Source of the DNA: Escherichia phage MX01
Direction: 5' to 3' (one strand)
Length of the DNA stretch: 64,000 bases
Sequence record: NC_031934.1
Each line of letters begins with the position of its first letter. The first letter of the stretch is position 1. The notes under the pieces are model-generated. The model had not been told where the DNA came from, did no database searches, and worked only from the letters and a program-made list of their open reading frames with translations. Position numbers and translations under genes: made by a program. Positions 1-60,672 of the stretch are shown here, piece after piece.

Positions 1-619
1 GGCGCCCTGCTAATGCCACCGCTTCATGGATAGAGTCATGGTCTAGCGTATAAATGGTATCATTAAAGAATGATGATTTGTTTACATCCAATTTAGGATG
101 GGAATAGCTCAACGTTTCTTTTTGACGTTGCAGCATAATTTCCTGGAGCTCTTCGTTCAGGGTGATACCTTTATTACGAAGGTATTTGATGTGGGACATA
201 GTTTTCAGGAAGAAAGGATTATTCTTCAGGAAACGATGAGAGGTTTTGATAGCCAGACAGATATCAGGCGTAGCCCAATAGAAACCTGTAAGACGGTCCT
301 TTTTAATATGATTTTCAGCATATTTCAGGAGACGATAGCTTGAGGTGTAGTCTTCATCTTGGAGCTCACCGGTAATTTCTCGTACATTAGTCAGGGCACG
401 GACGATATAAGCTTCGAAATAGGTTTCTTTACCGTTATGCATACATTTGAAAGCCTGAACATCAGGATTGTCAACGTGTACATGAGCACCGAACATACGT
501 GCTTTAAAGTGGTTCCATGAGCCTTGGTCGGCAATGAAATCCCAATCAGAATTTTCGATATGCTTACTTTCAATCAGACCTGCGTGGTGCAGTGCACGAG
601 AACCAATAACTAACATCAT
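1..619 (-). CDS. hypothetical protein, 3' end beyond window edge; possible nucleotidyltransferase fold
   Basis: Minus-strand frame opens at ATG 617-619 and runs off position 1 without a stop; N-terminus MMLVIGSRAL...DWDFI resembles the GS...DxD pattern of Pol-beta-type nucleotidyltransferases. The track ORFs 98-343(+) and 391-573(-) are in other frames. Confidence 0.4.
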   Translation of the reverse strand, partial: MMLVIGSRALHHAGLIESKHIENSDWDFIADQGSWNHFKARMFGAHVHVDNPDVQAFKCMHNGKETYFEAYIVRALTNVREITGELQDEDYTSSYRLLKYAENHIKKDRLTGFYWATPDICLAIKTSHRFLKNNPFFLKTMSHIKYLRNKGITLNEELQEIMLQRQKETLSYSHPKLDVNKSSFFNDTIYTLDHDSIHEAVALAGR

Positions 620-638
620 AATATTTTCCTCAGTAAAC

Positions 639-878
639 TTAAATTTCAGCAACGTAATCGTTATGCAATTCCCACATATCATCAGAATTATTCTTAATGA
701 TAGGAATTATCTCATTAGAGATTTCTTCTGCATAAGGGTCGTTGATACAGTGGGCATCTTCAAAACGAACACCGTAATCAGACTTCTTATAAGCAAAGCC
801 ATAAATCTTTTTAAACTTGGCACGGGTAATGCGTACCGGTTCATTAGACTTATCGGACATCGGAGCGTAATACCACAT
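639..878 (-). CDS. hypothetical small protein
   Basis: 79-aa ORF; ATG 876-878 preceded by GAGGAGAAC RBS inside the conserved leader cassette. Confidence 0.55.
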   Translation of the reverse strand: MWYYAPMSDKSNEPVRITRAKFKKIYGFAYKKSDYGVRFEDAHCINDPYAEEISNEIIPIIKNNSDDMWELHNDYVAEI

Positions 879-905
879 ATGTTCTCCTCATGTTTGTGTA
901 GGGTA

Positions 906-935
906 ATAGTAACACGTATTTTTAGAGTTGTACAT
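906..935 (-). promoter_or_regulatory. early-type promoter (TGnTACTAT -10, degenerate -35) with conserved leader
   Basis: Minus-strand reading ATGTACAA-N-TGTTACTATTACCCTACACAAACATGAGGAGAAC-ATG; same cassette as at 56468-56497. Confidence 0.4.
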
Positions 936-1251
936 CACTTCTGCAATATTCTAAAAATAATTTATCGTTGTCTACCGTATCCCAACGACGCCAAGATGGA
1001 TTCCAGACCAGAGCGTTGTCACCACAATCATTGAGCTTAAAATGGTCGTAGTACATAGCTATACGTCTAGTTTCGTCACCAGAGAATCCCAGTATAGGCT
1101 CACCATGGGTGTGATACATATGATGGTGCATTGAGAGGTCGCATTTGTAAAACATCTCACGTTTACCGCGAACGAACAAGAAAGCTTGCCCATTCATATA
1201 GAATTCTTTATCTGTTTTCAAAAGATATTTGAATACTGAATCTTTATGCAT
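922..1251 (-). CDS. hypothetical protein with His-rich motif (MHHHMYHTHG)
   Basis: Track ORF 922-1272 uses a non-ATG first codon; internal ATG at 1249-1251 has a GGAGG RBS. Confidence 0.5.
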   Translation of the reverse strand: MHKDSVFKYLLKTDKEFYMNGQAFLFVRGKREMFYKCDLSMHHHMYHTHGEPILGFSGDETRRIAMYYDHFKLNDCGDNALVWNPSWRRWDTVDNDKLFLEYCRSDVQL

Positions 1252-1281
1252 AAGTCCTCCTACCACATCCATGTGGTTAAA

Positions 1282-1509
1282 TTATTTTCCTAACGAAATA
1301 CGAGTAGGTTTTTTACCGAAATAGTCTTCATAAGAACCATCTAAACGACCTGCTTTAGACCGACAATATGAATCGTACTTTTTGTAATAAGTCATCTCAG
1401 TATTATAACGCGGGTGTCTATCAGCCATAATAATACTTAACGGCCAACCTTTGGCATAATCGCGAAGACCATTTATTTTACGAATGTATCTTTTCTTTAA
1501 TTTTAGCAT
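1282..1509 (-). CDS. hypothetical basic small protein
   Basis: 75-aa ORF; ATG overlaps upstream stop (ATGCTAA), suggesting translational coupling. Confidence 0.5.
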   Translation of the reverse strand: MLKLKKRYIRKINGLRDYAKGWPLSIIMADRHPRYNTEMTYYKKYDSYCRSKAGRLDGSYEDYFGKKPTRISLGK

Positions 1510-1727
1510 GAGCTCGGATACCAGATTTTACCATCGGCCTGAGCAACGAAGGTGCGTCCAGCTTCTTCGCCATAACACGAGCTATTCAGCCAATCTTCGA
1601 GACGAACTTCACCGTCATAATCGTCGAGCTCAACACCAAAACTTTGAGCAGAAGCCATATCTTTTACTTTCTTATACAGTGCAGCCAGTTCAAGTGCAGC
1701 TTTTTCTAATTCATTAATATCAGACAT
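1503..1727 (-). CDS. small acidic protein, W-x-S-S-C C-terminal family member 1
   Basis: 74 aa; RBS AAGGTGA; C-terminus ...DGKIWYPSSC. Confidence 0.6.
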   Translation of the reverse strand: MSDINELEKAALELAALYKKVKDMASAQSFGVELDDYDGEVRLEDWLNSSCYGEEAGRTFVAQADGKIWYPSSC

Positions 1728-1738
1728 TTTTTATCACC

Positions 1739-1951
1739 TTAGCAAGACATAGAGGATGTAAACCAGAAACCTTCACCTTCCGGAATACCGTAGTCATCAC
1801 GGACCCATTCGTAATCATCATATTCCGGGTTCTTTGGAGAAATGTATTCTCCACGACCAGAAACACGGAACTCTTCACCCGTTTCGTCAGCCACGGCCTG
1901 GCCTTTACGTACTAATTCGCGGATTTGTTTTTCAATTTCATCAATAGTCAT
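1739..1951 (-). CDS. small acidic protein, W-x-S-S-x-x-C family member 2
   Basis: 70 aa; RBS AAGGAAA; C-terminus ...GEGFWFTSSMSC. Confidence 0.6.
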   Translation of the reverse strand: MTIDEIEKQIRELVRKGQAVADETGEEFRVSGRGEYISPKNPEYDDYEWVRDDYGIPEGEGFWFTSSMSC

Positions 1952-1960
1952 TTTATTTCC

Positions 1961-2242
1961 TTAACATTCAGAAGAAGAGGACACCCATCCACCATTTTCT
2001 AGGCTGGTAGTGTAATCATGTTGGTTTACAATAGCGTACTGAGCTTCACCGTATTCTTCCCAGTGGGCAAGGTCGGCTTTCAAGGCGCCAGGAGAATAAT
2101 AGTCACCGCCCATACCGCGAGCAGGGTATATATTAAAATGAGTCTCATATTTGTTTGCAATTTCCTCAGCACGACGAATAGCTTTATGGATATCATTTAC
2201 TGCTTCAGCCAGCTCTTTATTTTTACGGCAATCATTCATCAT
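1961..2242 (-). CDS. small acidic protein, W-x-S-S-x-x-C family member 3
   Basis: 93 aa; RBS AAGGAAA; C-terminus ...ENGGWVSSSSEC; shares IANKY..F and GDYYSPG motifs with member 4. Confidence 0.6.
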   Translation of the reverse strand: MMNDCRKNKELAEAVNDIHKAIRRAEEIANKYETHFNIYPARGMGGDYYSPGALKADLAHWEEYGEAQYAIVNQHDYTTSLENGGWVSSSSEC

Positions 2243-2251
2243 AGCGTTTCC

Positions 2252-2542
2252 TTAGCACATTGCTGAAGAGGAGACCCAAGCACCAACTGTAACGACGCCG
2301 TTTTCAACTTCACCGCCGTTGTTTTCAATTTCATCTTTAAACCACTGGGAGCATTCATAGCCGATAGGATAATATGTACGTCCTGAACCATAATCACCGG
2401 TACCGAATTGGATACCATACTTATCGGCAATAGCTTCACATTCATGTTCGATGGTATTCGCTTTATTCAGAAGAGCATAGATAGCCTTTTCTGCAGATTT
2501 CTCGTCATTGTGTTCCGGGATTTCGATTTCAATTTTATTCAT
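2252..2542 (-). CDS. small acidic protein, W-x-S-S-x-x-C family member 4
   Basis: 96 aa; C-terminus ...VGAWVSSSAMC; start overlaps upstream stop (ATGA). Confidence 0.6.
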   Translation of the reverse strand: MNKIEIEIPEHNDEKSAEKAIYALLNKANTIEHECEAIADKYGIQFGTGDYGSGRTYYPIGYECSQWFKDEIENNGGEVENGVVTVGAWVSSSAMC

Positions 2543-2892
2543 GATTTACATTCCTTAATAAAGGTTTCAAGGTCATTACGTTTAGTTTGTTTTACATACT
2601 CATTATAATTAGCCATAGCTAAAGCATATCTCTTTTTACGTGGCTTGTTTATTTTATTAGTTTGGGCAATATCAAAGACCCATGGGATAAAAAATCCTAT
2701 TAAAGCCGGAACCCAAATCCATGCAAGGCTCATATCTTCAAACGGATGGCGAGGCATACCATTAATAATCCCACCGACAAGAAATCCAATTATCCCTGCA
2801 GTCATACTAGTAGCAATGCCGAGGAATAAGGAAATAGCTATATCATAATCTGCTAATGCGTAACCAGGGTCGGTTTTACTAGGCTTATGCAT
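2539..2892 (-). CDS. small membrane protein (two predicted TM helices)
   Basis: Track ORF 2539-3066 overlaps the upstream gene; internal ATG 2890-2892 has an AGAGG RBS and sits just after the upstream stop; hydrophobic stretches LFLGIATSMTAGIIGFLVGGII and LAWIWVPALIGFFIPWVF. Confidence 0.5.
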   Translation of the reverse strand: MHKPSKTDPGYALADYDIAISLFLGIATSMTAGIIGFLVGGIINGMPRHPFEDMSLAWIWVPALIGFFIPWVFDIAQTNKINKPRKKRYALAMANYNEYVKQTKRNDLETFIKECKS

Positions 2893-3421
2893 TTTGAACC
2901 TCTTTAGCGTATTCGCGGCATTCAGCAATAAAACGATTAAGCTTCCGTTGTTGTTTTCGAATCTCTGATGTATACTCATTAGCCAAAATAATAAGCTCGT
3001 CTTTATCGTAATTTTTAATATCCGAATAACTCGGGCGGCGGTCGACCATACCAAAGTGGTCACCATTTTCTAACATCAAATAGCATACTAAATGGTAATC
3101 ATCGTCAGCATCAACAAGCTGTTTACAATCACTTGGTTCATTTAAAGCGTATACTGAATAGCATAATCCAGCGAATTCCACTCGTTGAATACCTAGATTT
3201 AAGTCAATAATTTCTAAAGCTTCTGCAAAAGAAAGGTCCTCAGCTAAAGCAAAGATAAAAGGTAATTTGGTAGTATCGCCACGGCTAGATGTTCTGCTTA
3301 AGAAATCGTTTGAATAGCCTAGGTCTTGGCGAATTCTATAAAGAACTGAATTGGTTTCATGGGAAAGACCACTATTTTTAAACCAATCAATATTTGATAT
3401 AAGGTTATCATATAAACTCAT
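2885..3421 (-). CDS. hypothetical protein
   Basis: 178-aa ORF; ATG 3419-3421 with GGAGGAGAGGAG RBS region. Confidence 0.55.
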   Translation of the reverse strand: MSLYDNLISNIDWFKNSGLSHETNSVLYRIRQDLGYSNDFLSRTSSRGDTTKLPFIFALAEDLSFAEALEIIDLNLGIQRVEFAGLCYSVYALNEPSDCKQLVDADDDYHLVCYLMLENGDHFGMVDRRPSYSDIKNYDKDELIILANEYTSEIRKQQRKLNRFIAECREYAKEVQNA

Positions 3422-3444
3422 AATATTCTCCTCTCCTCCAAATA

Positions 3445-3462
3445 GGGAGACCGAAGTCTCCC
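3445..3462 (-). terminator. intergenic stem-loop GGGAGAC-UUCG-GUCUCCC
   Basis: 18-nt hairpin identical (reverse orientation) to the gene 23 terminator hairpin at 41579-41596; lies between two minus-strand genes. Confidence 0.35.
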
Positions 3463-3469
3463 GGTAACA

Positions 3470-4063
3470 TTACTTAAGTGAATTAATGTAGTCTTCGATA
3501 TCAGCAGAAGTCGTATCCATTCCAACTTGTGGGCCTTTAAACGTTTCTACACGCAGTAGGGTGTCTTCAATATCAATCTTAGTCAGTGCAGCGATTTCAA
3601 CAACATCATCGGCAGTAGCAATACCAAGGGCAGCCATATTACGAGTTTCACGGATGTACTCGAGCTTAACAGCCAGTTCCTGACGAGAGTCATCAAGTTC
3701 CTTAACCTTCAGTTTAATTTCATTACGCATTTCGATATAATCATCGGCTTTCTTACGAAGCTGAGTAGCTGTACGACGATAAAGGAGACCGAGTTTAGCA
3801 TGTACCTGGACATCAGAGCCTTCGGCAATCAGTTTACGAATTTCACGTTCTTTAGAAGCAGCGAGCTGGTCTTTTTCATTAGCCAAAGCACGAATACGTT
3901 TTTCTTCATTCACAGACTTAACATGAGCCGTCTGGAGTTCAGTGATTTTATCAATCAGGGTAGAAGCAGCTTTGGTGTATTGGTCTTCGATTGACAGGTT
4001 CTGAGCCATCGCGGTACCCAGTTTAGAACGGATGAATTCAACGATTTTCTTTAAAGTGTTCAT
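3470..4063 (-). CDS. coiled-coil-rich hypothetical protein
   Basis: 197-aa ORF, heptad-like charged repeats throughout; RBS GAAGGAAA. Confidence 0.55.
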
Positions 4064-4105
4064 AGTATTTCCTTCAGTTGATTAAGATTTATAATCCATG
4101 AGGAC

Positions 4106-4135
4106 ATTATACCCTGTCCTCTGAGGTTTGTAAAC
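4106..4135 (-). promoter_or_regulatory. sigma70-type promoter GTTTACA-N18-TATAAT
   Basis: Minus-strand reading GTTTACAAACCTCAGAGGACAGGGTATAAT upstream of the 4063 start. Confidence 0.4.
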
Positions 4136-4138
4136 ATT

Positions 4139-4537
4139 TTATTTCATTTTTGCGAGGCAAATTTCATTGGCTTCCCATTGAGCTTGCTTAATAATAGCTT
4201 TGGATACAGGAGCCCTTTGGCCATAAGTTTTTGACGTTGAGAGAACAATACATTTGTTTGCCTCATTATGCCATCCCCATGATTTTTCGCCATGAGTACC
4301 TTTAACTACAGCAGACACCTCAACAGAGCAACCACCATCAGAAATCTTGGTTTCGACAACCCATTCATTTCTCTCAGCAGCTTCAATTTCTAATCTAGTT
4401 TTTTCTTCATACATCGCGGCCCAATCAGTTTTTGCCAAGTTGAAAGTAAGAGCTTTCTCTAGTTCTTTGGCATATTTTTGTTGTTCAGGTGTTAATGAAT
4501 TATACAACTCTTGCATTTCTTTATCTTCGATATTCAT
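4139..4537 (-). CDS. hypothetical protein
   Basis: 132-aa ORF; RBS GAGGAGAAC before ATG 4535-4537. Confidence 0.55.
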   Translation of the reverse strand: MNIEDKEMQELYNSLTPEQQKYAKELEKALTFNLAKTDWAAMYEEKTRLEIEAAERNEWVVETKISDGGCSVEVSAVVKGTHGEKSWGWHNEANKCIVLSTSKTYGQRAPVSKAIIKQAQWEANEICLAKMK

Positions 4538-4562
4538 TATGTTCTCCTCAAATTATGGGCTC

Positions 4563-4592
4563 ATAATATCTTAATCATGAGCCCATGTAAAC
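4563..4592 (-). promoter_or_regulatory. sigma70-type promoter GTTTACA-N-TATTAT embedded in a 10-bp inverted repeat
   Basis: Minus-strand reading GTTTACATGGGCTCATGATTAAGATATTAT; inverted repeat ATGGGCTCAT (4555-4564) / ATGAGCCCAT (4577-4586). Confidence 0.4.
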
Positions 4593-4595
4593 GTT

Positions 4596-4859
4596 TTATT
4601 TCATATTATTGAAATAATTTTCTGCATCAAAATCATTACCATGGTAAACTTTGGTAGACGATTTGGCGTAACCTTCAGCTGAGAACATATTAATCACAAC
4701 TTTAATTGTATACCACTGTCCATCTTCATTACCCATTACTGCATAGGTTTCATACACCGGGTGTTCAGGACCGATAACTTTAATATCGTTAACAGTAGCA
4801 CCAAATTCTTCAGGGACGCATTTCATAAAGAAATTAAACACTTCACCATAATTATCCAT
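4596..4859 (-). CDS. hypothetical protein
   Basis: Track ORF starts at GTG 4872-4874; ATG 4857-4859 with GAAGGAGAG RBS preferred. Confidence 0.5.
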   Translation of the reverse strand: MDNYGEVFNFFMKCVPEEFGATVNDIKVIGPEHPVYETYAVMGNEDGQWYTIKVVINMFSAEGYAKSSTKVYHGNDFDAENYFNNMK

Positions 4860-4894
4860 TTTACTCTCCTTCACACTGTTGTTTTGATAGGTCT

Positions 4895-4923
4895 ATAGTA
4901 TCATGTTCTACGAAAGAGTAAAC
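4895..4923 (-). promoter_or_regulatory. early-type promoter GTTTAC-N17-TGaTACTAT
   Basis: Minus-strand reading GTTTACTCTTTCGTAGAACATGATACTATAGACCTATCAAAAC. Confidence 0.45.
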
Positions 4924-4945
4924 ATCTTTTTTAAACTTTTTAGAA

Positions 4946-4976
4946 ACAAAAAAAGGCCCAACCTTTCGGAAGGGCC
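4946..4976 (-). terminator. intrinsic terminator (hairpin GGCCC...GGGCC followed by U-run on the minus strand), copy 1 of 3
   Basis: aaaaaaaaGGCCCAACCTTTCGGAAGGGCC; identical to copies at 5572-5599 and 48035-48063. Confidence 0.6.
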
Positions 4977-4981
4977 TAGAA

Positions 4982-5536
4982 TCAGTTCCTGTAGAACCGG
5001 AATGGGTTTATGTGGAAGGCTAACATAGCCTTAGGGATTTTACGAGACAAAAGACTCTTAAGTTTCCAACCACAGTATACACGAAGGTAAAAGGTAATCC
5101 CACCTACTTTAAGATACGGAACTGAAGCAAAGACTCCCCATGCTTCGTCATTCCACATCCATAACCATCCATGATGAGCTTTATCAGGAGAACCGGATTC
5201 AACGTCAGGATTACCACGATAATGGAATTCTGAGCTACAATCGCGTCCAAGTTTATGGTAAGCAAAGTTATAAGCTTTATTTCGCCACAGCCAAGCTACT
5301 CTCTGGAGATAAACACCGCCAGGCATTTTCCTGATTTTAGCCCAACGTTTAATATGGCCTTTGTCACCGTCAATTGGATTATCGTATGTCATCATCCAAT
5401 CAAAGCCATAAGGCAATTTACCGGTCTTTTTATTATGAAAAGGGACTACAAAAGGTGCAAGGATAACAGCCAGAACCATAGAGATAAAATCTAGAGGGAC
5501 CAACAGTACCCAACTCAAATATTTTAAAAGTTTCAT
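4982..5536 (-). CDS. hypothetical Trp-rich protein with N-terminal transmembrane segment
   Basis: 184-aa ORF; N-terminal hydrophobic stretch LSWVLLVPLDFISMVLAVILAPFVVPF; AGGAAA RBS; late promoter upstream. Confidence 0.55.
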   Translation of the reverse strand: MKLLKYLSWVLLVPLDFISMVLAVILAPFVVPFHNKKTGKLPYGFDWMMTYDNPIDGDKGHIKRWAKIRKMPGGVYLQRVAWLWRNKAYNFAYHKLGRDCSSEFHYRGNPDVESGSPDKAHHGWLWMWNDEAWGVFASVPYLKVGGITFYLRVYCGWKLKSLLSRKIPKAMLAFHINPFRFYRN

Positions 5537-5562
5537 ATTATTTCCTAAGTTAGTTTACTACA

Positions 5563-5570
5563 TATTTATA
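5563..5570 (-). promoter_or_regulatory. T4-type late promoter TATAAATA
   Basis: Plus-strand tatttata = TATAAATA on the minus strand, 26 nt upstream of ATG 5536. Confidence 0.5.
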
Positions 5571-5571
5571 C

Positions 5572-5599
5572 AAAAAAGGCCCAACCTTTCGGAAGGGCC
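5572..5599 (-). terminator. intrinsic terminator, copy 2 of 3
   Basis: aaaaaaGGCCCAACCTTTCGGAAGGGCC; ends the tRNA/stable-RNA transcription unit. Confidence 0.6.
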
Positions 5600-5835
5600 T
5601 TTAACCTAGGGTAACCTTGTCGGGGTTCCACCTGCTAGGCAAGTGTTCGGTGCGCCGTTTCTGCTGTGATATAAGGGGACATTAACGAATCGTAAAGATT
5701 TATTAATGCCGGTCCTTAAACAGGGAACATCAGTCCGACGACTTACCGGTAGCGACCCGGTTTCTTGTTTGTTGCGCCGGTGAATGCTGGTAATCAGTCT
5801 TCATACGACGGCTTGACTATATAATAGTCTTCATT
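5600..5835 (-). ncRNA. ORF-free structured region downstream of tRNA-Arg; candidate small stable RNA(s)
   Basis: About 235 nt with no ORF, GC-rich inverted repeats (e.g. CCGGTAGCGACCCGG), between tRNA-Arg and a terminator; T4 encodes stable RNAs beside its tRNA cluster. Confidence 0.25.
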
Positions 5836-5910
5836 TGGTATCCCGCCCTGGGATCGAACCAGGACCGCAAACTTAGAAGGATCGTATGCTATCCATTACA
5901 CCAGCGGGAC
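5836..5910 (-). tRNA. tRNA-Arg (anticodon TCT)
   Basis: Minus-strand reading GTCCCGCTGGTGTAATGGATAGCATACGATCCTTCTAAGTTTGCGGTCCTGGTTCGATCCCAGGGCGGGATACCA; cloverleaf with TTCGATC T-loop, anticodon loop CTTCTAA, encoded CCA. Confidence 0.85.
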
Positions 5911-5915
5911 ATAGT

Positions 5916-5992
5916 TGGTGACCCGGACCAGATTTGAACTGGTAACCTTTCCCTTATGAGGGGACTGCTGCTAACCATTGAGCTACGGGGCC
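5916..5992 (-). tRNA. tRNA with CAT anticodon (Met, or Ile via lysidine)
   Basis: Minus-strand reading GGCCCCGTAGCTCAATGGTTAGCAGCAGTCCCCTCATAAGGGAAAGGTTACCAGTTCAAATCTGGTCCGGGTCACCA; T-arm ACCAG-TTCAAAT-CTGGT, anticodon loop CTCATAA; one acceptor-stem mismatch. Confidence 0.7.
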
Positions 5993-5997
5993 TTAAT

Positions 5998-6264
5998 TTA
6001 AATTACAAATCCAGCGGGAGCATTATCATCTTTAGCCATGTGCTGAATTGTATGATAAGTCATTTCTTCAGGAGCAACCAGATAAGCCGCCGCGTTAACT
6101 AGTGGAATTATTTTCGGTTTAGCGAATGTGCTATCGGCAATTGCCATAAAGGGCTCGCCATCAGTCTCAACTTCGCCAAATTGGCATTCATATGAAATAG
6201 AACAACGTTTGGTAGTTGTTGTCTTGGTTTCCGGGTCATAAAAAGCTAATTTTAATACTAACAT
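5998..6264 (-). CDS. hypothetical protein
   Basis: ATG 6262-6264 with GAGGTG RBS; ends 6 nt upstream of the tRNA. Confidence 0.5.
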   Translation of the reverse strand: MLVLKLAFYDPETKTTTTKRCSISYECQFGEVETDGEPFMAIADSTFAKPKIIPLVNAAAYLVAPEEMTYHTIQHMAKDDNAPAGFVI

Positions 6265-6438
6265 AAACACCTCAAATAAAATTAAGTAAAGTAAGTTTGA
6301 TTAATAGACCTTGTCTATTATGAAAGGCTCTTTGAGGGAAGAACCTTTGGTAATAGAGGGTATTAATGATAGAGTAATAATAACACATTACTCTTAAAGC
6401 ATATTACTATTTTTAGGAATAGTCTGGCCAAATTTGAT

Positions 6439-6729
6439 TCATTGTGGCCACATATTAATGTAATCAAGTTTAATAGAAGCAATCTTCAAAGGATTTTTAA
6501 AGATGTCGTATTCGATCAATCCGTTTTCAGTTGCGGTGTAGAAAGTAAAGTTAACAGAATTATAACGGCGACCATTAACTTTTAGTTTAACGTCGCTTGA
6601 ACTACGACCAATATTAACCTGTTGGACATCAAGCACAGCACCTTTGCCAAAGTTGCGAATCAGTAGCTCTGCTGCAACCTGGTCCGAATTATAGCCATTC
6701 TCTGGATTAGTAACCTTAACGTATAGCAT
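6439..6729 (-). CDS. hypothetical protein
   Basis: 96-aa ORF; RBS GAGGG; start abuts upstream stop. Confidence 0.5.
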   Translation of the reverse strand: MLYVKVTNPENGYNSDQVAAELLIRNFGKGAVLDVQQVNIGRSSSDVKLKVNGRRYNSVNFTFYTATENGLIEYDIFKNPLKIASIKLDYINMWPQ

Positions 6730-7131
6730 TTAACCCTCGTCTACAATAGTATGGGTATTAGCATTAACAATCTGCCACCAGTCACAGTCAAAACGATTAG
6801 AACCGTAACGAGGCTTTTTCTCATTTTCGTTAATAATATCACGTAGTTCGTCTTCAGAAAATGCTTTAGCGATTAAATCGGTATAGCCGCCACGTGGATA
6901 ATAGTTATCACCTGCGAACAGAAGGAAATTTACTTTACCAGAAGGAACATATGCTTCCTTAGGATACTTGTTTCCTGCTTGGTCTACCACTTCAATATAA
7001 CGGTAAGGAATATCGGTACTTTCAACCCATTGCCAAGCTGCAGCAGGGGATTCAAAAGCATCTACACCTAAACGGTTATCTTCATCTTTAGACGGATTAT
7101 TTTCATAATCCGCATATACATAATATTTCAT
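6730..7131 (-). CDS. hypothetical protein
   Basis: Track start is TTG at 7149; ATG 7129-7131 with AAGGTGAG RBS preferred. Confidence 0.5.
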   Translation of the reverse strand: MKYYVYADYENNPSKDEDNRLGVDAFESPAAAWQWVESTDIPYRYIEVVDQAGNKYPKEAYVPSGKVNFLLFAGDNYYPRGGYTDLIAKAFSEDELRDIINENEKKPRYGSNRFDCDWWQIVNANTHTIVDEG

Positions 7132-7132
7132 T

Positions 7133-7318
7133 TTACTCACCTTTTGCAATTTTATCCATAACGATAGCGATTAAACCGATTAGAAATGCTACTACCAATG
7201 AGATAGAATTTTCTGTTGTTGTCAGTAGTCCACAAATGAATCCTACAAACATCGAAAAACTAAAAGCCATTGAAGCAATTACTACAGCAACATTACGAAT
7301 CAGTTCAGCGCGTTTCAT
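7133..7318 (-). CDS. small membrane protein
   Basis: 61 aa, two hydrophobic helices; RBS GAGGAGAAT. Confidence 0.5.
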   Translation of the reverse strand: MKRAELIRNVAVVIASMAFSFSMFVGFICGLLTTTENSISLVVAFLIGLIAIVMDKIAKGE

Positions 7319-7346
7319 TTTATTCTCCTCAGTAGTTGATAGGGTA

Positions 7347-7376
7347 ATAGTATCACTACCCTATCTAAAAGTAAAC
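7347..7376 (-). promoter_or_regulatory. early-type promoter GTTTAC-N18-TGaTACTAT
   Basis: Minus-strand reading GTTTACTTTTAGATAGGGTAGTGATACTAT; -10 sits in the loop of a 6-bp stem AGGGTA/TACCCT. Confidence 0.45.
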
Positions 7377-7387
7377 GGTTTTATAAA

Positions 7388-7696
7388 CTATTTTATTCCG
7401 CGTGATGCAATCGTATTCTGCCGTTTAACGCCAGTTTGTTTAAAGTTATGATTGTCGAGTTGATCGGTACGAGCAACTCCGAATGATGATTTAATCTTAG
7501 CTTTAGATCCTTTAGTTATAGAAATATACATCTCGGGAGCCCCTTTCTTAAAGTCCGAAGCAATTACTTCAACACCGTTCTTAGCAAGTGACTTCAGAAT
7601 TGCTTCCGCATACTCATCATCAAGACCCGCTTGAGTATGAATAATGAATGTCTTTGGTGCAGCCGCTTCATTGATAAATTCTTGATATGTTTTCAT
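7388..7696 (-). CDS. internal protein (ip) with capsid-targeting N-terminus MKTYQEFINEA
   Basis: Begins MKTYQEFI, the conserved leader of T4 internal proteins IPI/IPII/IPIII (from memory); ATG 7694-7696 preferred over the track start. Confidence 0.65.
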   Translation of the reverse strand: MKTYQEFINEAAAPKTFIIHTQAGLDDEYAEAILKSLAKNGVEVIASDFKKGAPEMYISITKGSKAKIKSSFGVARTDQLDNHNFKQTGVKRQNTIASRGIK

Positions 7697-7730
7697 TTTG
7701 ATTTCCATTTAGTTTTGTTTTGATAGGGCT

Positions 7731-7760
7731 ATAGTATCACCACTAAAGCCCGTTGTAAAC
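7731..7760 (-). promoter_or_regulatory. early-type promoter GTTTACA-N17-TGaTACTAT
   Basis: Minus-strand reading GTTTACAACGGGCTTTAGTGGTGATACTAT. Confidence 0.45.
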
Positions 7761-7762
7761 AA

Positions 7763-8035
7763 TTATTTTAAATAAATTGCATACTTTTTATAACCAGCTG
7801 TTTCGTGACGTAGCCCTTTTTCATTAGCAAAACGTTCAATATTGTTAATTTGATTCTGGTCAAGTTCTGAAGTATCAAATACAAAAAAGTTTCGCTTATT
7901 GCCTAAAGTTACGTGATTAGTCAAATCGATGTTATAGAGATGATTTATATCATCAATCATAGTCTTAACAGATTTGTTAATTTTTACTTCCTCATTAAGA
8001 ATAGATTCAGCGATAAATTCTTGATAAGTTTTCAT
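7763..8035 (-). CDS. internal protein, ipI-position homolog, with capsid-targeting N-terminus MKTYQEFIAES
   Basis: Same MKTYQEFI leader; sits immediately after 57B as ipI does in T4; about 35 bp of 5' coding sequence plus leader near-identical to the 7388-7696 gene. Confidence 0.65.
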   Translation of the reverse strand: MKTYQEFIAESILNEEVKINKSVKTMIDDINHLYNIDLTNHVTLGNKRNFFVFDTSELDQNQINNIERFANEKGLRHETAGYKKYAIYLK

Positions 8036-8058
8036 TTTGATTTCCGTGCGGTTAGTTT

Positions 8059-8100
8059 GTTTACAAGGTCTATAGTATCATGCCTATAGACCTTGTAAAC
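8059..8100 (-). promoter_or_regulatory. early promoter inside a perfect 17-bp inverted repeat (promoter/stem-loop cassette)
   Basis: GTTTACAAGGTCTATAG-tatcatgc-CTATAGACCTTGTAAAC; the minus strand carries GTTTAC-N17-TGaTACTAT. Confidence 0.5.
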
Positions 8101-8111
8101 ACCTTTTTAAA

Positions 8112-8789
<678 letters not shown>

Positions 8790-8797
<8 letters not shown>

Positions 8798-9551
8798 TTT
8801 TATTTCCTAATAATTTATCAATAGTGGTGTATAGTTCAGAAAGAGTGCCGTTATTTTCAACAACAACGTCACCAGGTAAAATTGGTAGACCCGCTTCAGT
8901 GATGTGCGAGTCTTGTACTTGACCGGTTTCAGCGCGAACTACATGAATAATCGTAGCACCCATCGCTCTGAGCGAATCAATTTCGTGTGTTTGACGAACA
9001 TCAGGTACGACATAGTATTTCGCATCAGAGTATATTTTATCAAAATAGTCTAAAGCGAACAACTTAACCCAATACATCTTATCAAATTGGTTAACAATAA
9101 TATCAGTCCCAAGGGTCTGCATGAGACGACGTACTGACCAATTGTTATTTTTATTTATTACTTCAAACAGTTGGTCTTTTGTTTCTTCAGACAGATACTG
9201 GACTGGGGTAAGACCATAATGATATGCGGTACGAACGTCCATTCCTGGAATAGGAAGGATATTATTCAGTTTGACAATAGCATTTTCAAAGATATCAATC
9301 ACATCATATGGTTTTAAAGGAAGGATTTCTTCACGGTCGTAACCGATACCTTCAAAACAGTTGAAATCCAGTTTAGGCATATAACTACGGTCGAATACAG
9401 GGTCATCAGAGATGTATTCATAGGCTTCAGCCAGATACTTTTTAATAGGACCTGCGAGCTGAAATTTTACCGAATCCATATTTTCGATTACATAGTTAGC
9501 AACGGTATCCTTACCGCTACGTTTGATTCCTACAATTGATATTAGTTTCAT
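8790..9551 (-). CDS. 1: dNMP kinase
   Basis: MKLISIVGIKRSGKDT P-loop start and C-terminal ...ARAMGATIIHVVR...THITEAGLPI closely match recalled T4 gp1. Confidence 0.9.
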
Positions 9552-10141
9552 TATTTTCTCATAGATGGATGCATAGACATACGAGCCACACGTTGTTCGG
9601 CATACGAATCAATTTGTGGACGACCTGTAACTATTGTACCATCTATTTCTACAGCAAACGATTTGAAGTTGAATGTTGCTGTGGCGATTATCGCTGGGTC
9701 AGAATCCTCTTTATAAGAGTACTGGATTTCCGAGAGGTCGGATGGCCAACCACCGTAGTAATGAATGCTCATTACGATTTTCTGTTTGTTGTTATCAAGG
9801 ATGTGGAGGGTGATAGCTTCAGGTTGACCTTTAGGATGCCAGGCTTCTGAATCATGTGTTACATAGTTGTTTAATGACAACATCCACTTATAAACATCAA
9901 GCCATGATTTCAATTCACGGTCCACAAGAAAGTTCACGATCAGTGGGTCGAATTCTACAGTAGAACCTGGCAGCTTAGCACGATGTATGCCCTGGGTCGA
10001 TCCTGGGACGTCTGAGACCGGAATATGGATACCTGGTAGTGTTACATCTTGTACGTTCAATTTGAATGCCTGCGTCATTCCTGCGTCACTAACCTCTAAG
10101 ATAAAGTTAGTAGTGTTAGTTTGGTTAAATAAGCCGTTCAT
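9551..10141 (-). CDS. 3: tail completion / sheath stabilizer protein gp3 (by position)
   Basis: 196 aa, between genes 1 and 2 as in T4; AGGAA RBS. Confidence 0.6.
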   Translation of the reverse strand: MNGLFNQTNTTNFILEVSDAGMTQAFKLNVQDVTLPGIHIPVSDVPGSTQGIHRAKLPGSTVEFDPLIVNFLVDRELKSWLDVYKWMLSLNNYVTHDSEAWHPKGQPEAITLHILDNNKQKIVMSIHYYGGWPSDLSEIQYSYKEDSDPAIIATATFNFKSFAVEIDGTIVTGRPQIDSYAEQRVARMSMHPSMRK

Positions 10142-10152
10142 AGGGTTCCTAT

Positions 10153-10180
10153 ATTGCTTAAGTCCCAGACAGTGTATAAT
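10153..10180 (+). promoter_or_regulatory. MotA-type middle promoter candidate, antisense to genes 2 and 4
   Basis: ATTGCTTAAG-N-AGTGTATAATGGTCCTA; the 17-nt AGTGTATAATGGTCCTA is identical to the uvsY promoter -10 region, with the same ATTGCT-N16-TATAAT spacing. Confidence 0.35.
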
Positions 10181-10223
10181 GGTCCTAGGTCTGTTCCATT
10201 CAATAACTGGCTGGGATAATAGA

Positions 10224-11060
10224 TTATGAATTCTTCCATACTTTCTGAGCTGAATAACGCTTGCCTTTAGACATGAACTGTTGGAGCGGCATCATTACGA
10301 CATTAGCCCAATCAGACGGTTTTATCTCTACTAAAGGTCCCTTAATATTTCCAGGGATATAAGCCTTAATCATCACGTCGGCGCCAGCGAATCCTTTTAC
10401 CTTACTCCAATCGATTTTTAATTTAGTCGAGTTCGTAATGGTAGGCGTACTCGCGTATTGCTTCAGCAATTCTTCCAGAAATTGCTGACGTGCTTTAGGT
10501 GGAATATAGTGTAAGTTCAGTCCGTACATTAAATTATGCTTACCTAACCCAAGATAAATTATTAAAGGATATTTGTCCCAGTATGGTAGGGTATCCTTAT
10601 GTTTAGCATCATAGATATAAGCATAAAGCTTACCAGGAGACGGTTTAGATACCTGGTGTCCACGAATTCCTTTCTTTAATGTTTCTGTAAACCATTTAGC
10701 TGATTTATTGTTTACGGCAGCGCCTTCGTTAGCAATCTTATCGCGAATACTCTTTCTAAAACTATTCACCAAAATTAATTGACGTTCGGCTTTGGTTAAT
10801 TTATTGCCAGGTTTCTTCTGAAGTTTTTCAACCTGTACAGCAGTTTTAATTCGACTCGAGTATCGAGACATCGCAGATGTAAAGCTAGAATACTTGATGC
10901 CTTTATCTTCAGCGAATTTCTTAGCCGAGACACCTTTAGCCTTGGCATTGGCATATTCAACGCCTAAAGCTATCCATTGTTGTTCTGAACGAGTAGGCTT
11001 AGAACCTTTTGTAGTTTCAGTAGCCTCGTTTATGTAAGAAAATATACTCATCCTTTCCAT
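10224..11060 (-). CDS. 2: gp2 DNA end protector protein
   Basis: 278 aa; position between 4 and 3; overlaps gene 4 by 13 nt. Confidence 0.75.
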
Positions 11061-11497
11061 CCTAATTTTTTCAGTGAGTTTTCGGTAATCAATCTGAAAT
11101 TAATTCCCATTTTATCTGCTGTAGCTTTAGCAGCTTTCCATTTATCTTTATTTACACTCCATGTATAATGTTCGTTGATATATCTCTTTTTAGCAGCTGT
11201 AGTCATTTTAGCAGGTGCCGCTGGAGGATGTGTTTCTTTAAAAGGTTTGACTTCGAAAAAGAATTGTTGTCCATTATCGAACTTCACCCAGAAGTCCATA
11301 AAATACCGACGTTTCTTTCCATCAGCGTTACTAAAATATGGAATCACCACCTCTTCCGAGTTCCACTGGACAACATTAGGATGGTTATCAAGCCAACGCA
11401 TAAGCCATGCTTCCCAAGAGGAACGATATTGGATTTTCTTCCAATCACCTTTATATTTTTGTAAGTTTGTAGGTTTAAATTTCCCTGAGTAGGCCAT
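11048..11497 (-). CDS. 4: gp4 head completion protein
   Basis: MAYSGKF...YRSSWE...[22 protein letters not shown]...FFFEVKP matches recalled T4 gp4. Confidence 0.9.
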
Positions 11498-11507
11498 AGT
11501 GCCTCCT

Positions 11508-41611: not shown

Positions 41612-41878
41612 CTATGCAATCTTAACTCGGCGGTTGATGATATCACGGAAGTCAATACGATTTTCTTGGATTTTCAGCCAGTTACCGGATTTGTCTTTGG
41701 TATGGGTAGAATATTCGCCGTTCCACCAGAAATCGGTTTCATAAGCCAGAGCTTCGTATTTCTTAACCAATGCATTAACTGCATTACCATTAGGATTGGT
41801 ACCGAATTTTTCTACCAGAGCTTTGATGTCTTTGTCAAGGTTAGAAAGCGTGGTACGGATAAAGTTTAATTTGTTCAT
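41612..41878 (-). CDS. hypothetical small protein, early gene antisense to the late cluster
   Basis: 88 aa from ATG 41876-41878 (GAGGAG RBS in conserved leader); own early promoter upstream. Confidence 0.55.
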   Translation of the reverse strand: MNKLNFIRTTLSNLDKDIKALVEKFGTNPNGNAVNALVKKYEALAYETDFWWNGEYSTHTKDKSGNWLKIQENRIDFRDIINRRVKIA

Positions 41879-41907: not shown

Positions 41908-41937
41908 ATAGTAACACGACGCTTTTTGTGTGTAAAC
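41908..41937 (-). promoter_or_regulatory. early-type promoter GTTTACA-N17-TGtTACTAT
   Basis: Minus-strand reading GTTTACACACAAAAAGCGTCGTGTTACTATAGACCTATCAAAACATGAGGAG. Confidence 0.45.
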
Positions 41938-44413: not shown

Positions 44414-44623
44414 TTACTTTGAACTAGAACGCGCTTTGCGCCGAACCTTGTTGTTCAATCTTTTACGATAAACAACCTTTTCTTTCGCTTTAAATTTGGC
44501 CTTGGCTTGTTCTACATCAACCCATGCTTTGGCCATATCCTTAGCGGTCCCACCCATTTTTTTAGCAATTTCTATAAAATTCAACCCAGATTCGTGTAAA
44601 AAATGTACTTTAACCTTATCCAT
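44414..44623 (-). CDS. hypothetical small basic protein
   Basis: 69-aa ORF with Lys/Arg-rich C-terminus; sigma70-like promoter upstream. Confidence 0.5.
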   Translation of the reverse strand: MDKVKVHFLHESGLNFIEIAKKMGGTAKDMAKAWVDVEQAKAKFKAKEKVVYRKRLNNKVRRKARSSSK

Positions 44624-44699
44624 AACAATTCTCTCGTTGAGTTGGTAAAACCCATCTTAACATAGAATTTTTAACTTGTAAACAGGAATTTTGTACTTT

Positions 44700-47809: not shown

Positions 47810-48033
47810 AAACCTTTAAAGAAGTTATTCAGGAAGCATCTATTGAAAGCTTCATGTCTAAAATTAGTTCTTGTCAGACCATGGACGGTCTGGAGGAATT
47901 GGAGAAGTATTACAAAACTCGTAGTAAGGAAGCCGAACTTCGTGATTCGGATGATATCAGCGTACGCGATGCATTGGCTGGTAAGAGAGCTGAATTGGAG
48001 TCGATGGACGACGAGGAAGAGGAAGATTTCTAA
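47806..48033 (+). CDS. uvsW.1: UvsW.1 small acidic protein
   Basis: 75 aa; ATGA overlap with uvsW. Confidence 0.75.
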   Translation: MKTFKEVIQEASIESFMSKISSCQTMDGLEELEKYYKTRSKEAELRDSDDISVRDALAGKRAELESMDDEEEEDF

Positions 48034-48034
48034 A

Positions 48035-48063
48035 CAAAAAAGGCCCAACCTTTCGGAAGGGCC
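48035..48063 (-). terminator. intrinsic terminator, copy 3 of 3
   Basis: Identical aaaaaaGGCCCAACCTTTCGGAAGGGCC; good U-run only in the minus direction. Confidence 0.55.
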
Positions 48064-48092
48064 AATAACCATAAATGGCTATACACACTAGA

Positions 48093-56148: not shown

Positions 56149-56439
56149 TTATTTACGGAACGAAATGAAACCTGCTGCAGTCATTAATGGTTGCTTTTTA
56201 ACAAACACTGTGACTGAAATAGGAGCTTCAGATTCAAGCTGACCAGTCACTACACCATTAAAGATATTTTCAGTTTGTTCTGGATGAGAAAAATTCTCAA
56301 CAGGTCGGATATCAAACTGTTTGTCTTCACCGAAAACTCGACGTAATTCATTACCTACGGCACTGTCAAACACTTCAGAAGCAGGGATAACGTTTTCAAC
56401 TACCAGTTCTTGACCATTAAAACGGAATGCAGATTTCAT
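56149..56439 (-). CDS. hypothetical protein
   Basis: 96 aa; ATG 56437-56439 with GAGGAGAAC RBS in the conserved leader. Confidence 0.5.
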   Translation of the reverse strand: MKSAFRFNGQELVVENVIPASEVFDSAVGNELRRVFGEDKQFDIRPVENFSHPEQTENIFNGVVTGQLESEAPISVTVFVKKQPLMTAAGFISFRK

Positions 56440-56467
56440 AATGTTCTCCTCATGTTTGTGTAAGGTA

Positions 56468-56497
56468 ATAGTACCACATCCTTGTGGTGTTGTAAAC
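56468..56497 (-). promoter_or_regulatory. early-type promoter GTTTACA-N18-TGgTACTAT with conserved leader
   Basis: Minus-strand reading GTTTACAACACCACAAGGATGTGGTACTATTACCTTACACAAACATGAGGAGAAC; -35 overlaps the stop of the upstream alt paralog. Confidence 0.45.
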
Positions 56498-58620: not shown

Positions 58621-58623
58621 TAT

Positions 58624-60669: not shown

Positions 60670-60672
60670 TAT

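Follow-up and report, generated by a model that had tools for sequence, protein, structure and literature searches.

Repeated, probable early-promoter cassettes in a JS98-like T4-type phage, with a hairpin-bearing subset and probable crossover points in the internal-protein/tRNA region

Ten copies of a minus-strand cassette in a 64,000-nt stretch of the Escherichia phage MX01 genome (NC_031934.1; hereafter the window) are probably sigma-70-dependent early promoters of the JS98-like type, a subset of them bearing hairpins and those of the internal-protein (IP)/tRNA region acting as crossover points. The motif is a standard strong JS98-like early promoter, an element of a kind known from T4 early promoters (Pe) and from the promoter-early stem-loop (PeSL) cassettes, not catalogued before from this lineage. 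In the proposed unit an A/T-rich UP region would precede GTTTAC, a gap of 14-15 nt, TGnTACTAT and AGACCT / ATCAAC, with transcription predicted to start at the A seven bases past the -10; a leader of 20-30 nt would then run up to GAGGAG, a Shine-Dalgarno sequence of the type that RegB cleaves, and a small minus-strand early ORF would follow. To judge by consensus, strand, position and conservation, host RNA polymerase would fire these promoters right after infection.

The first 12 kb of the window resembles JS98-like T4-type coliphages (genus Dhakavirus), with WG01 as the top match (96% over 100% of the query). The minus strand of positions 1-11,500 corresponds to the e.x / tRNA / internal-protein / 57B-57A-1-3-2-4 region, and late baseplate and head genes lie on the plus strand from 11,543 onwards. 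Seven of the ten cassette copies fall in the e.x/tRNA/IP region (1-8200), which holds indel junctions relative to seven related phages, and the remaining three adjoin small accessory ORFs among core genes. Every site is followed, 20-40 nt downstream on the minus strand, by an ORF that matches a PHROG over its full length (internal head proteins, n=2; unknown function, n=8). Positions and elements of the individual copies are given in Table 1.

Table 1. Early-promoter cassettes and associated repeats in the window. PWM, position weight matrix trained on JS98; z, score of the fold from -35 to ATG.
Feature	Position	Strand	Sequence elements	Downstream gene or setting	PWM score	Hairpin
Focal copy	879..935	-	weak -35 ATGTAC (930-935); extended -10 TGTTACTAT (906-914); leader TACCCTACACAAACATGAGGAGAACAT		19.0	z -0.05
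Gene downstream of the 906 copy	639-878		79-aa ORF; ATG 876-878, just beyond 879..935	phrog_3723
Early-type promoter	4106..4135	-	GTTTAC-N18-TATAAT, no TGn	e.6-like ORF 3470-4063 (phrog_1203)	22.8	inverted repeat GAGGAC/GTCCTC flanks -10; local hairpin in fold, overall z -1.2
Early-type promoter	4563..4592	-	GTTTAC-N18-TATTAT	ORF 4139-4537		10-bp inverted repeat ATGGGCTCAT/ATGAGCCCAT, 13 pairs in fold, -10 in loop; -20.1 kcal/mol, z -5.84
Consensus early promoter	4895..4923	-	GTTTAC-N14-TGATACTAT; leader AGACCTATCAAAAC...GAAGGAGAG	e.8-like ORF 4596-4859	49.7
Intrinsic-terminator repeat, 3 copies (family D8)	4939..4983, 5562-5606, 48026-48070	-	GGCCCTTCCGAAAGGTTGGGCC(T)6-7
Early promoter	7347..7376	-		trna.4-like ORF 7133-7318		9-bp inverted repeat GATAGGGTA/TACCCTATC, 12 pairs in fold, encloses -10; z -2.77
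Shine-Dalgarno/start and capsid-targeting sequence (MKTYQEFI) repeat (family D15)	7667..7706, second copy 8006-8045	-	copies 93% identical
Early promoter	7731..7760	-		internal head protein ORF 7388-7696 (MKTYQEFINE; phrog_2667)		GGGCT..AGCCC stem around -10; z -3.87
Early promoter in palindrome	8058..8101 (promoter 8072-8100)	-		internal head protein ORF 7763-8035		perfect 17-18 bp, GTTTACAAGGTCTATAG / CTATAGACCTTGTAAAC; -28.1 kcal/mol, z -8.19
Consensus early promoter	41908..41937	-		between late genes 23 and 24; antisense 88-aa ORF 41612-41878 (JS98 orf173)	47.9	none, z -0.10
Weaker early-type promoter	44654..44683	-	GTTTAC-N15-TGTTAAGAT	24.3-like ORF 44414-44623	21.8
Second focal copy	56441..56497	-	GTTTAC-N15-TGGTACTAT; leader TACCTTACACAAACATGAGGAGAACAT	between alt paralogue and alt.-3 (ORF 56149-56439)	34.1	small, confined to spacer; z -1.1

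The initial annotation had listed seven of these sites (all except 4106, 4563 and 44654) as sharing GTTTAC, a spacing of 17 or 18 nt, TGnTACTAT and a conserved leader, and all seven were found at the coordinates it gave. GTTTAC and TGnTACTAT together are exact in six; the seventh (906-935) has ATGTAC as its -35 because that hexamer falls within the final codons of the ORF before it (922-1272). The spacing is correct when counted from hexamer to hexamer, and a search with N16-19 between GTTTAC and TGNTACTAT accordingly returned no match in the window. With GTTTAC-N14-17-TGNTACTAT there were six exact matches, every one of them minus-strand, where 100 dinucleotide shuffles gave an expectation of 0.00, and the extended -10 plus leader (TGNTACTATWRMCCTWNMM, at most one mismatch) recovered exactly the seven sites against 0.05 expected. 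The comparison with shuffled sequence had been fixed beforehand as the test of the motif, and in both searches the motif lay far above chance. An unsupervised repeat finder recovered the same families (D4, D6, D9 and D10).

Three sites had been overlooked, at 4106-4135 (TATAAT), 4563-4592 (TATTAT) and 44654-44683 (TAAGAT), the last with a JS98 orthologue at 110156-110185. Across all ten, the -35 is exactly GTTTAC in nine, the exception being 906-935, and the extended -10 is TGnTACTAT in seven and TGTTAAGAT in one; 4106 and 4563 lack the TG. The two hexamers stand 17 or 18 nt apart in all ten. When the window was scanned with a position weight matrix trained on JS98 alone, eight sites scored above the maximum of 12 shuffle scans (21.5) and none lay on the plus strand; the 906 copy was borderline, just below that maximum, and is kept in 7/7 relatives. 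A generic sigma-70 scan of the window returned 40 sites against 37.4 expected and is therefore uninformative for these sites. An Rfam search matched two tRNAs only, with nothing at the cassettes.

The anatomy of the promoter was taken from JS98, whose whole genome was assembled and searched for GTTTAC-N14-17-TGNTANNNT. All 33 matches genome-wide lie on the minus, early-transcribed strand (33/33), and their consensus is AaAaAa.tGTTTAC...CATGaTACTATAGaCCTATCAActa, with AGACCTATCAAC as the discriminator/start region; the UP region, AaAaAa in JS98, has the consensus AAAatAtTTaAAAAAg upstream of the -35 hexamers in the window. In three orthologous promoters compared across eight Dhakavirus genomes, variable columns numbered 0/18 in the -35, 1/27 in the extended -10 and 15/44 in the spacer, and such near-invariant hexamers around a variable spacer are the pattern expected of working sigma-70 promoters. 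This conservation, the T4-type architecture, the real ORFs downstream and the strand of the JS98 matches together support well, at the level of sequence, the proposal that the sites are early promoters.

T4 early promoters reportedly belong to an 'uber' UP/-35/TGn/-10 sigma-70 type, a description credited to Wilkens and Rueger and to Miller et al. in 2003. Like them, the sites described here have an A-rich UP region, the -35 GTTTAC, TGn and a TAnnnT-type -10, keep a hexamer spacing of 17-18 nt and lie ahead of early-strand genes; several T4 promoters also have TACTAT and a leader ending ...ATCAACTACTGAGGA. The sites differ in that Dhakavirus favours TACTAT over TATAAT and in that its discriminator/start region (AGACCTATCAAC) is more strongly conserved. 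Conserved positions beyond the UP, -35, TGn and -10 elements have been described for T4 early promoters (Hinton 2010, PMC2988021).

The conserved leader of the initial annotation is present at all seven of its sites but does not form a separate element. Since the genus-wide JS98 consensus spans AGACCT (-6 to -1) and ATCAAC, this leader is largely the promoter discriminator and the first transcribed bases; a variable stretch follows, and then the GAGGAG Shine-Dalgarno sequence. Conservation extending beyond +1 as far as roughly +6 (ATCAAC) and returning at the Shine-Dalgarno sequence could also mean that what follows the -10 works as an RNA element of the 5'-UTR and not as part of the promoter; a phage or host factor might bind or process it, for instance as a RegB/S1 or RNase E determinant, or it might be a translational operator. 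The likeness of the focal pair across the whole leader and the RegB-type context GGAG[A/G]A[C/T]A found in leaders would suit such an element. On the other hand, the information content of the JS98 sites is greatest within -6 to +6, at 0.3-1.1 bits for each position up to +5, and falls off beyond, the stretch from +8 to the Shine-Dalgarno sequence varies in length and sequence among copies, the leaders alone have no significant fold and match no Rfam family, and RB69 early-promoter logos already include comparable positions, with C preferred at -3 to -1 (PMC1524935). We therefore regard a separate RNA element as improbable and retain the reading of AGACCT and ATCAAC as discriminator and start. 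RegB is encoded by JS98, and the Shine-Dalgarno contexts GGAGAACA and GGAGAATAAAA resemble the strong RegB site GGAGRAYARAA, of which the leaders match the 5' part, with one full match at 7318; both observations fit early genes.

The two focal copies, at 879-935 and 56441-56497, had been described as near-identical over about 50 nt. Between the TG of the extended -10 and the ATG, 37 of the 40 aligned positions are the same in both, so the near-identity holds over about 40 nt and not 50; both contain CAAACATGAGGAGAAC, and farther upstream they have only TACAAC in common. At the second copy the TAG stop codon of the alt paralogue (56497-56499) and the -35 (GTTTAC, 56492-56497) share a single G, the first base of the hexamer. 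Dispersed copies, the perfect palindrome at 8058-8101 and the insertion of homing endonuclease genes hereabouts in some relatives might be taken to indicate a small mobile element, either MITE-like or the target of a homing endonuclease, whose likeness to a promoter is accidental. However, terminal inverted repeats and target duplications are absent, every copy has the same orientation and a fixed distance to the start codon, conservation follows the pattern of promoter hexamers, and the homing-endonuclease insertions of the relatives lie at other junctions (5910-5919 and 10217-10227). A mobile element is thus very improbable, and this reading was dropped on the orientation and position of the copies in favour of early promoters.

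Several of the promoters had been said to place the -10 in a stem-loop. In folds running from the -35 to the ATG, with z scores calculated per site, this proved true of 7347, 7731 and 8072 among the seven listed sites but not of 906, 4895, 41908 and 56468, where |z| was at most about 1.1. With 4563 added, four window promoters have a significant hairpin that holds the -10 (z -2.8 to -8.2), and no significant hairpin was found in the other six of the ten (906, 4106, 4895, 41908, 44654 and 56468). In the hairpin subset, the spacer between -35 and -10 is predicted to pair with sequence just past the -10, which would leave the -10 in the loop. In JS98, the spacer of 10/32 promoters can form a perfect stem of 7 bp or more with downstream sequence, compared with 2.5% for shuffled spacers; the mean stem length is 6.28, compared with 4.93 under partner permutation and 4.51 for shuffled spacers, where the sd of the mean is 0.13. 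Stems longer than under both shuffling and permutation imply that the arms are matched promoter by promoter.

The hairpins might nevertheless be non-regulatory by-products of quasi-palindrome-templated mutation and cassette recombination, tolerated in a free spacer. Such an origin would account for the window-only, multi-base change of CCTATCAAAAC to CCTTGTAAAC at 8072, which perfects a 17-bp palindrome with the -35, for arms that are swapped or broken in relatives (the JS98 promoter at 10654 retains CTATAG only), and for the six window promoters that lack a significant hairpin. It sits poorly with the frequency and partner specificity of the JS98 stems, with paired T>C / A>G changes in AnYang that compensate for each other and keep the 4563 stem, with similar stems at other promoters of T4 (e.g. 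GGGACC/GGTCCC and GACAAGACTA/TAGTCTTGTC), and with the finding that one PeSL stem-loop cut downstream lacZ expression about as far as the rrnB T1 terminator (PMC2839356; PMC4122927). We consider by-products an unlikely explanation.

With their 5' arm upstream of +1, the hairpins can arise only where the sequence is single-stranded DNA or part of a read-through transcript. No U-tract follows them on the sense strand, which sets them apart from canonical intrinsic terminators. The sole hairpin that scores as a terminator, 8058-8101, does so on the opposite strand: read on the plus strand it is followed by CCTTTTT and is the best terminator-like match of that strand. By analogy with the PeSLs of RB49/phi1, the promoter hairpins most likely attenuate or insulate transcription arriving from upstream. 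The promoter at 4895 has a copy of the intrinsic-terminator repeat (within 4939-4983) just upstream, and the two together make up a terminator-plus-promoter unit.

A second kind of complementarity was found in the JS98 spacers. CTCC occurs in the spacer of 11/33 JS98 promoters, against 0.7-1.7 expected, and ten of these eleven spacers pair with the GGAG of their own gene's leader, with covarying flanks, as in TTCTCCTCATG/CATGAGGAGAA, ATCTCCTGTAG/CTACAGGAGAT and ATCTCCATTAG/CTAATGGAGAT. No CTCC spacer of this kind was present among eight T4 promoters, and in the window only 4895 shows spacer-Shine-Dalgarno pairing (TTTACTCT with AGAGTAAA). These pairings suggest translational silencing of read-through RNA at the JS98 genes concerned. 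In T4, the promoters of e, soc, 49 and I-TevI lie within a hairpin of which both arms are present only in transcripts from upstream (PMC3014915). In JS98 class-1 hairpins the spacer likewise pairs with the Shine-Dalgarno sequence, but the T4 cases are late promoters of single genes, whereas those of Dhakavirus are early promoters and recurrent, and the stems in the window mostly miss the Shine-Dalgarno sequence. A more general proposal, to which we attach a low probability, is that the promoter-embedded hairpins of Dhakavirus form a systematic insulation code in which the spacer is complementary either to the start region or to the downstream gene's Shine-Dalgarno sequence. Read-through RNA would then fold, hide GGAG from ribosomes and RegB and stay silent, and only RNA begun at the gene's own promoter, without the 5' arm, would be translated.

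The cassettes had also been put forward as a plausible substrate for recombinational shuffling of accessory genes, to be checked by asking whether they mark boundaries of gene presence and absence. The idea that modules are shuffled at promoter cassettes is already published, for PeSLs. Colinear BLAST chains between positions 1-11,500 of the window and seven relatives gave 16 junctions, five of which fall within cassettes. That at 4941-4950, where JS98, AnYang and MN04 have an insertion of 685-695 nt, has the terminator T-run on one side and the UP region on the other; those at 7328 and 7691 lie inside two leaders and are the ends of a 362-nt module (7329-7690) that comprises the IP7 ORF and the 7347 promoter and that the window shares with WG01 alone; that at 8013-8042 lies within the shared Shine-Dalgarno/MKTYQEFI repeat, with a 30-nt overlap; and that at 8114-8120 is at the edge of a UP region. 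The repeat at 7667-7706 and 8006-8045 offers a patch of homology at which an extra IP gene could be gained or lost. An origin of the IP7 module by a single crossover or deletion between the two present-day window cassettes was rejected, as the leader of the relatives has a middle segment (TGAGTGATT) that is absent from both.

Chimeric cassettes point the same way. In the WG01 promoter at L001 9294 a UP region of the 7731 type is followed by a spacer of the 7347 type, and the JS98 promoter at L002 10654 joins an 8072-type 5' half to the 3' half AGCCCTATC. The trna.4 gene is under a 7347-type promoter in the window and WG01 and directly under a 7731-type promoter in the six other relatives, and similarity among copies extends over 30-110 nt. 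In the hyperplastic IP/tRNA region the copies have probably served as crossover points at which modules of an ORF plus its promoter were swapped, as seen in comparison with relatives, and elsewhere they are stable.

Five of 16 junctions in 7% of the sequence is above uniform chance (P=0.0045). When promoter-bearing gaps were compared with other intergenic gaps, however, there was no enrichment (5/13 junctions vs 41% expected, P=0.67), and four of the ten copies have no junction (906, 41908, 44654 and 56468; 41908 was compared with JS98). The other junctions lie at Shine-Dalgarno/ATG repeats, the ends of paralogous ORFs, terminator T-runs, the tRNA cluster and homing-endonuclease insertions. 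All of this could be expected if the likeness of the copies reflected convergent or purifying selection for an optimal promoter and ribosome-binding site, with no role in shuffling, given that gene indels must end intergenically. A 60-nt cassette query fits this account too: its matches were 100% in Dhakavirus and about 80% at non-orthologous loci in T4-like phages of Klebsiella, Enterobacter and Serratia, the latter as a shared promoter consensus would give. Selection by itself would not readily explain the chimeric cassettes of close relatives, the placing of trna.4 under different promoters in different phages, or two junctions inside shared leader or capsid-targeting sequence with overlaps of 16-30 nt, and PeSL crossovers of a like kind have been shown experimentally in RB49/phi1. 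We regard selection without shuffling as possible but doubtful. Support for recombinational shuffling at the cassettes is confined to the IP/tRNA region, at 7300-8120 and at junction 4941-4950, where the chimeric cassettes are found; the two focal copies, 41908 and 44654 mark no presence/absence boundary.

The closest published counterparts of the crossover copies are the PeSL cassettes of RB49/phi1, PST/T4 and nt-1/KVP40 (Arbiol 2010, PMC2839356; Comeau 2014, PMC4122927), and 'PeSL-like sequences' have already been named in JS98, at the g43 locus (PMC2839356). Both kinds of cassette combine an AT-rich region, an early promoter, a Shine-Dalgarno sequence and an ATG with a stem-loop, the latter significant at four of the ten window copies, and both are concentrated in hyperplastic regions. 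The commonest PeSL layouts according to their authors have the stem-loop between -35 and -10 or over the -10 (PMC2839356). Crossovers in RB49/phi1, shown experimentally through mini-circles, fall between the -10 and the Shine-Dalgarno sequence/ATG (PMC2839356; PMC4122927), the zone in which window junctions 7328 and 7691 lie. The stems in the window are AT-rich or mixed, unlike the GGGG...CCCC of PeSLs, and six of the ten copies lack a significant one; window promoters have the T4-type GTTTAC and PeSL promoters TTGACA; and mini-circles and terminator activity have been shown only for RB49/phi1. As Repoila 1994 (EMBO J 13:4181) is summarised in PMC2839356, early-promoter repeats and weak AT-rich stem-loops flank variable IP genes in T-even phages, and variability there is limited to the IP loci. 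The window at 7300-8120 is similar, including the shared MKTYQEFI capsid-targeting sequence, but belongs to another phage genus and has other IP genes (IP7-, IP8- and IP9-like).

These results yield a genus-specific early-promoter model for annotating early transcription units and small accessory genes in JS98-like phages, which are candidates for phage therapy. They set a limit on the shuffling idea, as most copies are stable and junctions at them are not above those in other intergenic DNA. They also give independent support for PeSLs from another T4-like lineage, where crossovers in the internal-protein locus, which is relevant to host range and anti-defence, would fall at promoter, leader and capsid-targeting repeats. 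The anti-Shine-Dalgarno spacers of JS98 are the sole part that could lead to something new: if the proposed silencing is true, the translation of each small early gene would be tied to the period when its own promoter is active, and the device known from gene e, soc, 49 and I-TevI would be extended from a few late promoters to a class of early promoters.

The early promoter at 8072-8100 lies within a palindrome, 8058-8101, where the window alone carries CCTTGTAAAC and all seven of the relatives compared carry CCTATCAAAAC. With this multi-base change from CCTATCAAAAC to CCTTGTAAAC the stem, 10-11 bp long in its original form, extends to 17 bp as a perfect palindrome that takes in the -35 element; the change looks like a quasi-palindrome-templated mutation. 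The same segment is the top plus-strand terminator-like site of the first 12 kb. A 60-nt cassette of early promoter and leader was matched at 100% in phage Ec2-ASingh (GenBank PQ561418.1).

Indels relative to the other genomes were also found at sequences other than early promoters. Direct repeats of 20-34 nt at 617-636 and 1954-1987 flank small-ORF indels and consist of Shine-Dalgarno/start regions (TGAGGAAAATATTATG) or paralogous ORF ends; thus non-promoter homology patches serve too. An orphan GTTTAC, lacking a -10 element, was noted at 632-637. Two of the three copies of a near-identical intrinsic terminator flank the indel junctions at 4941-4950 and 5528-5552, and one copy is directly followed by a late-promoter-like site. 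In both JS98 and WG01 a terminator copy precedes an internal head protein-like gene with the N-terminus MKTYNEF, driven by the late promoter at the corresponding position. A further indel junction, 6404-6412, adjoins the upstream edge of a putative middle promoter. This promoter, with orf137 and the tRNA genes downstream, carries an inverted repeat of its own (AGAGTAAT/ATTACTCT) together with a leader resembling the early ones (TACTCTATCA).

Putative middle and late promoters and a terminator repeat in the window, and examples of JS98 early promoters with CTCC in the spacer
Feature	Coordinates	Strand	Sequence or position
Putative MotA-type middle promoter	6377-6402	minus	ATGCTTTA + 12 nt + TATTAT
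Intrinsic terminator repeat, three near-identical copies	4939-4983, 5562-5606, 48026-48070	minus	GGCCCTTCCGAAAGGTTGGGCC + T-run
Late-promoter-like site	5563-5570	minus	TATAAATA; right after terminator copy, upstream of ORF 4982-5536
CTCC-spacer promoters (JS98 record)	7782-7810, 56788-56816, 59096-59124, 137873-137901, 168056-168084		

Copy number differed at two loci. The window encodes three tandem paralogues of alt, the RNA polymerase ADP-ribosyltransferase (707, 681 and 694 aa; 56497-62757; repeat spacing 2049/2094 nt), versus two in JS98, and a single gene 24, versus two in JS98. Just past gene 23, the segment 41575-41611 shows 95-100% identity to distant T4-like phages of Enterobacter, Serratia and Escherichia, and is probably a conserved gene 23 terminator common to the converging early ORF 41612-41878.

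In JS98, 11 of 33 early promoters contain CTCC within the -35/-10 spacer (0.7-1.7 expected), whereas this spacer type was found in none of the eight T4 early promoters examined. The JS98 CTCC spacers share 6-12 bp of complementarity with the Shine-Dalgarno region of their own downstream gene, and the flanks covary. Given this pairing potential, RNA reading through these promoters would sequester the ribosome-binding site.
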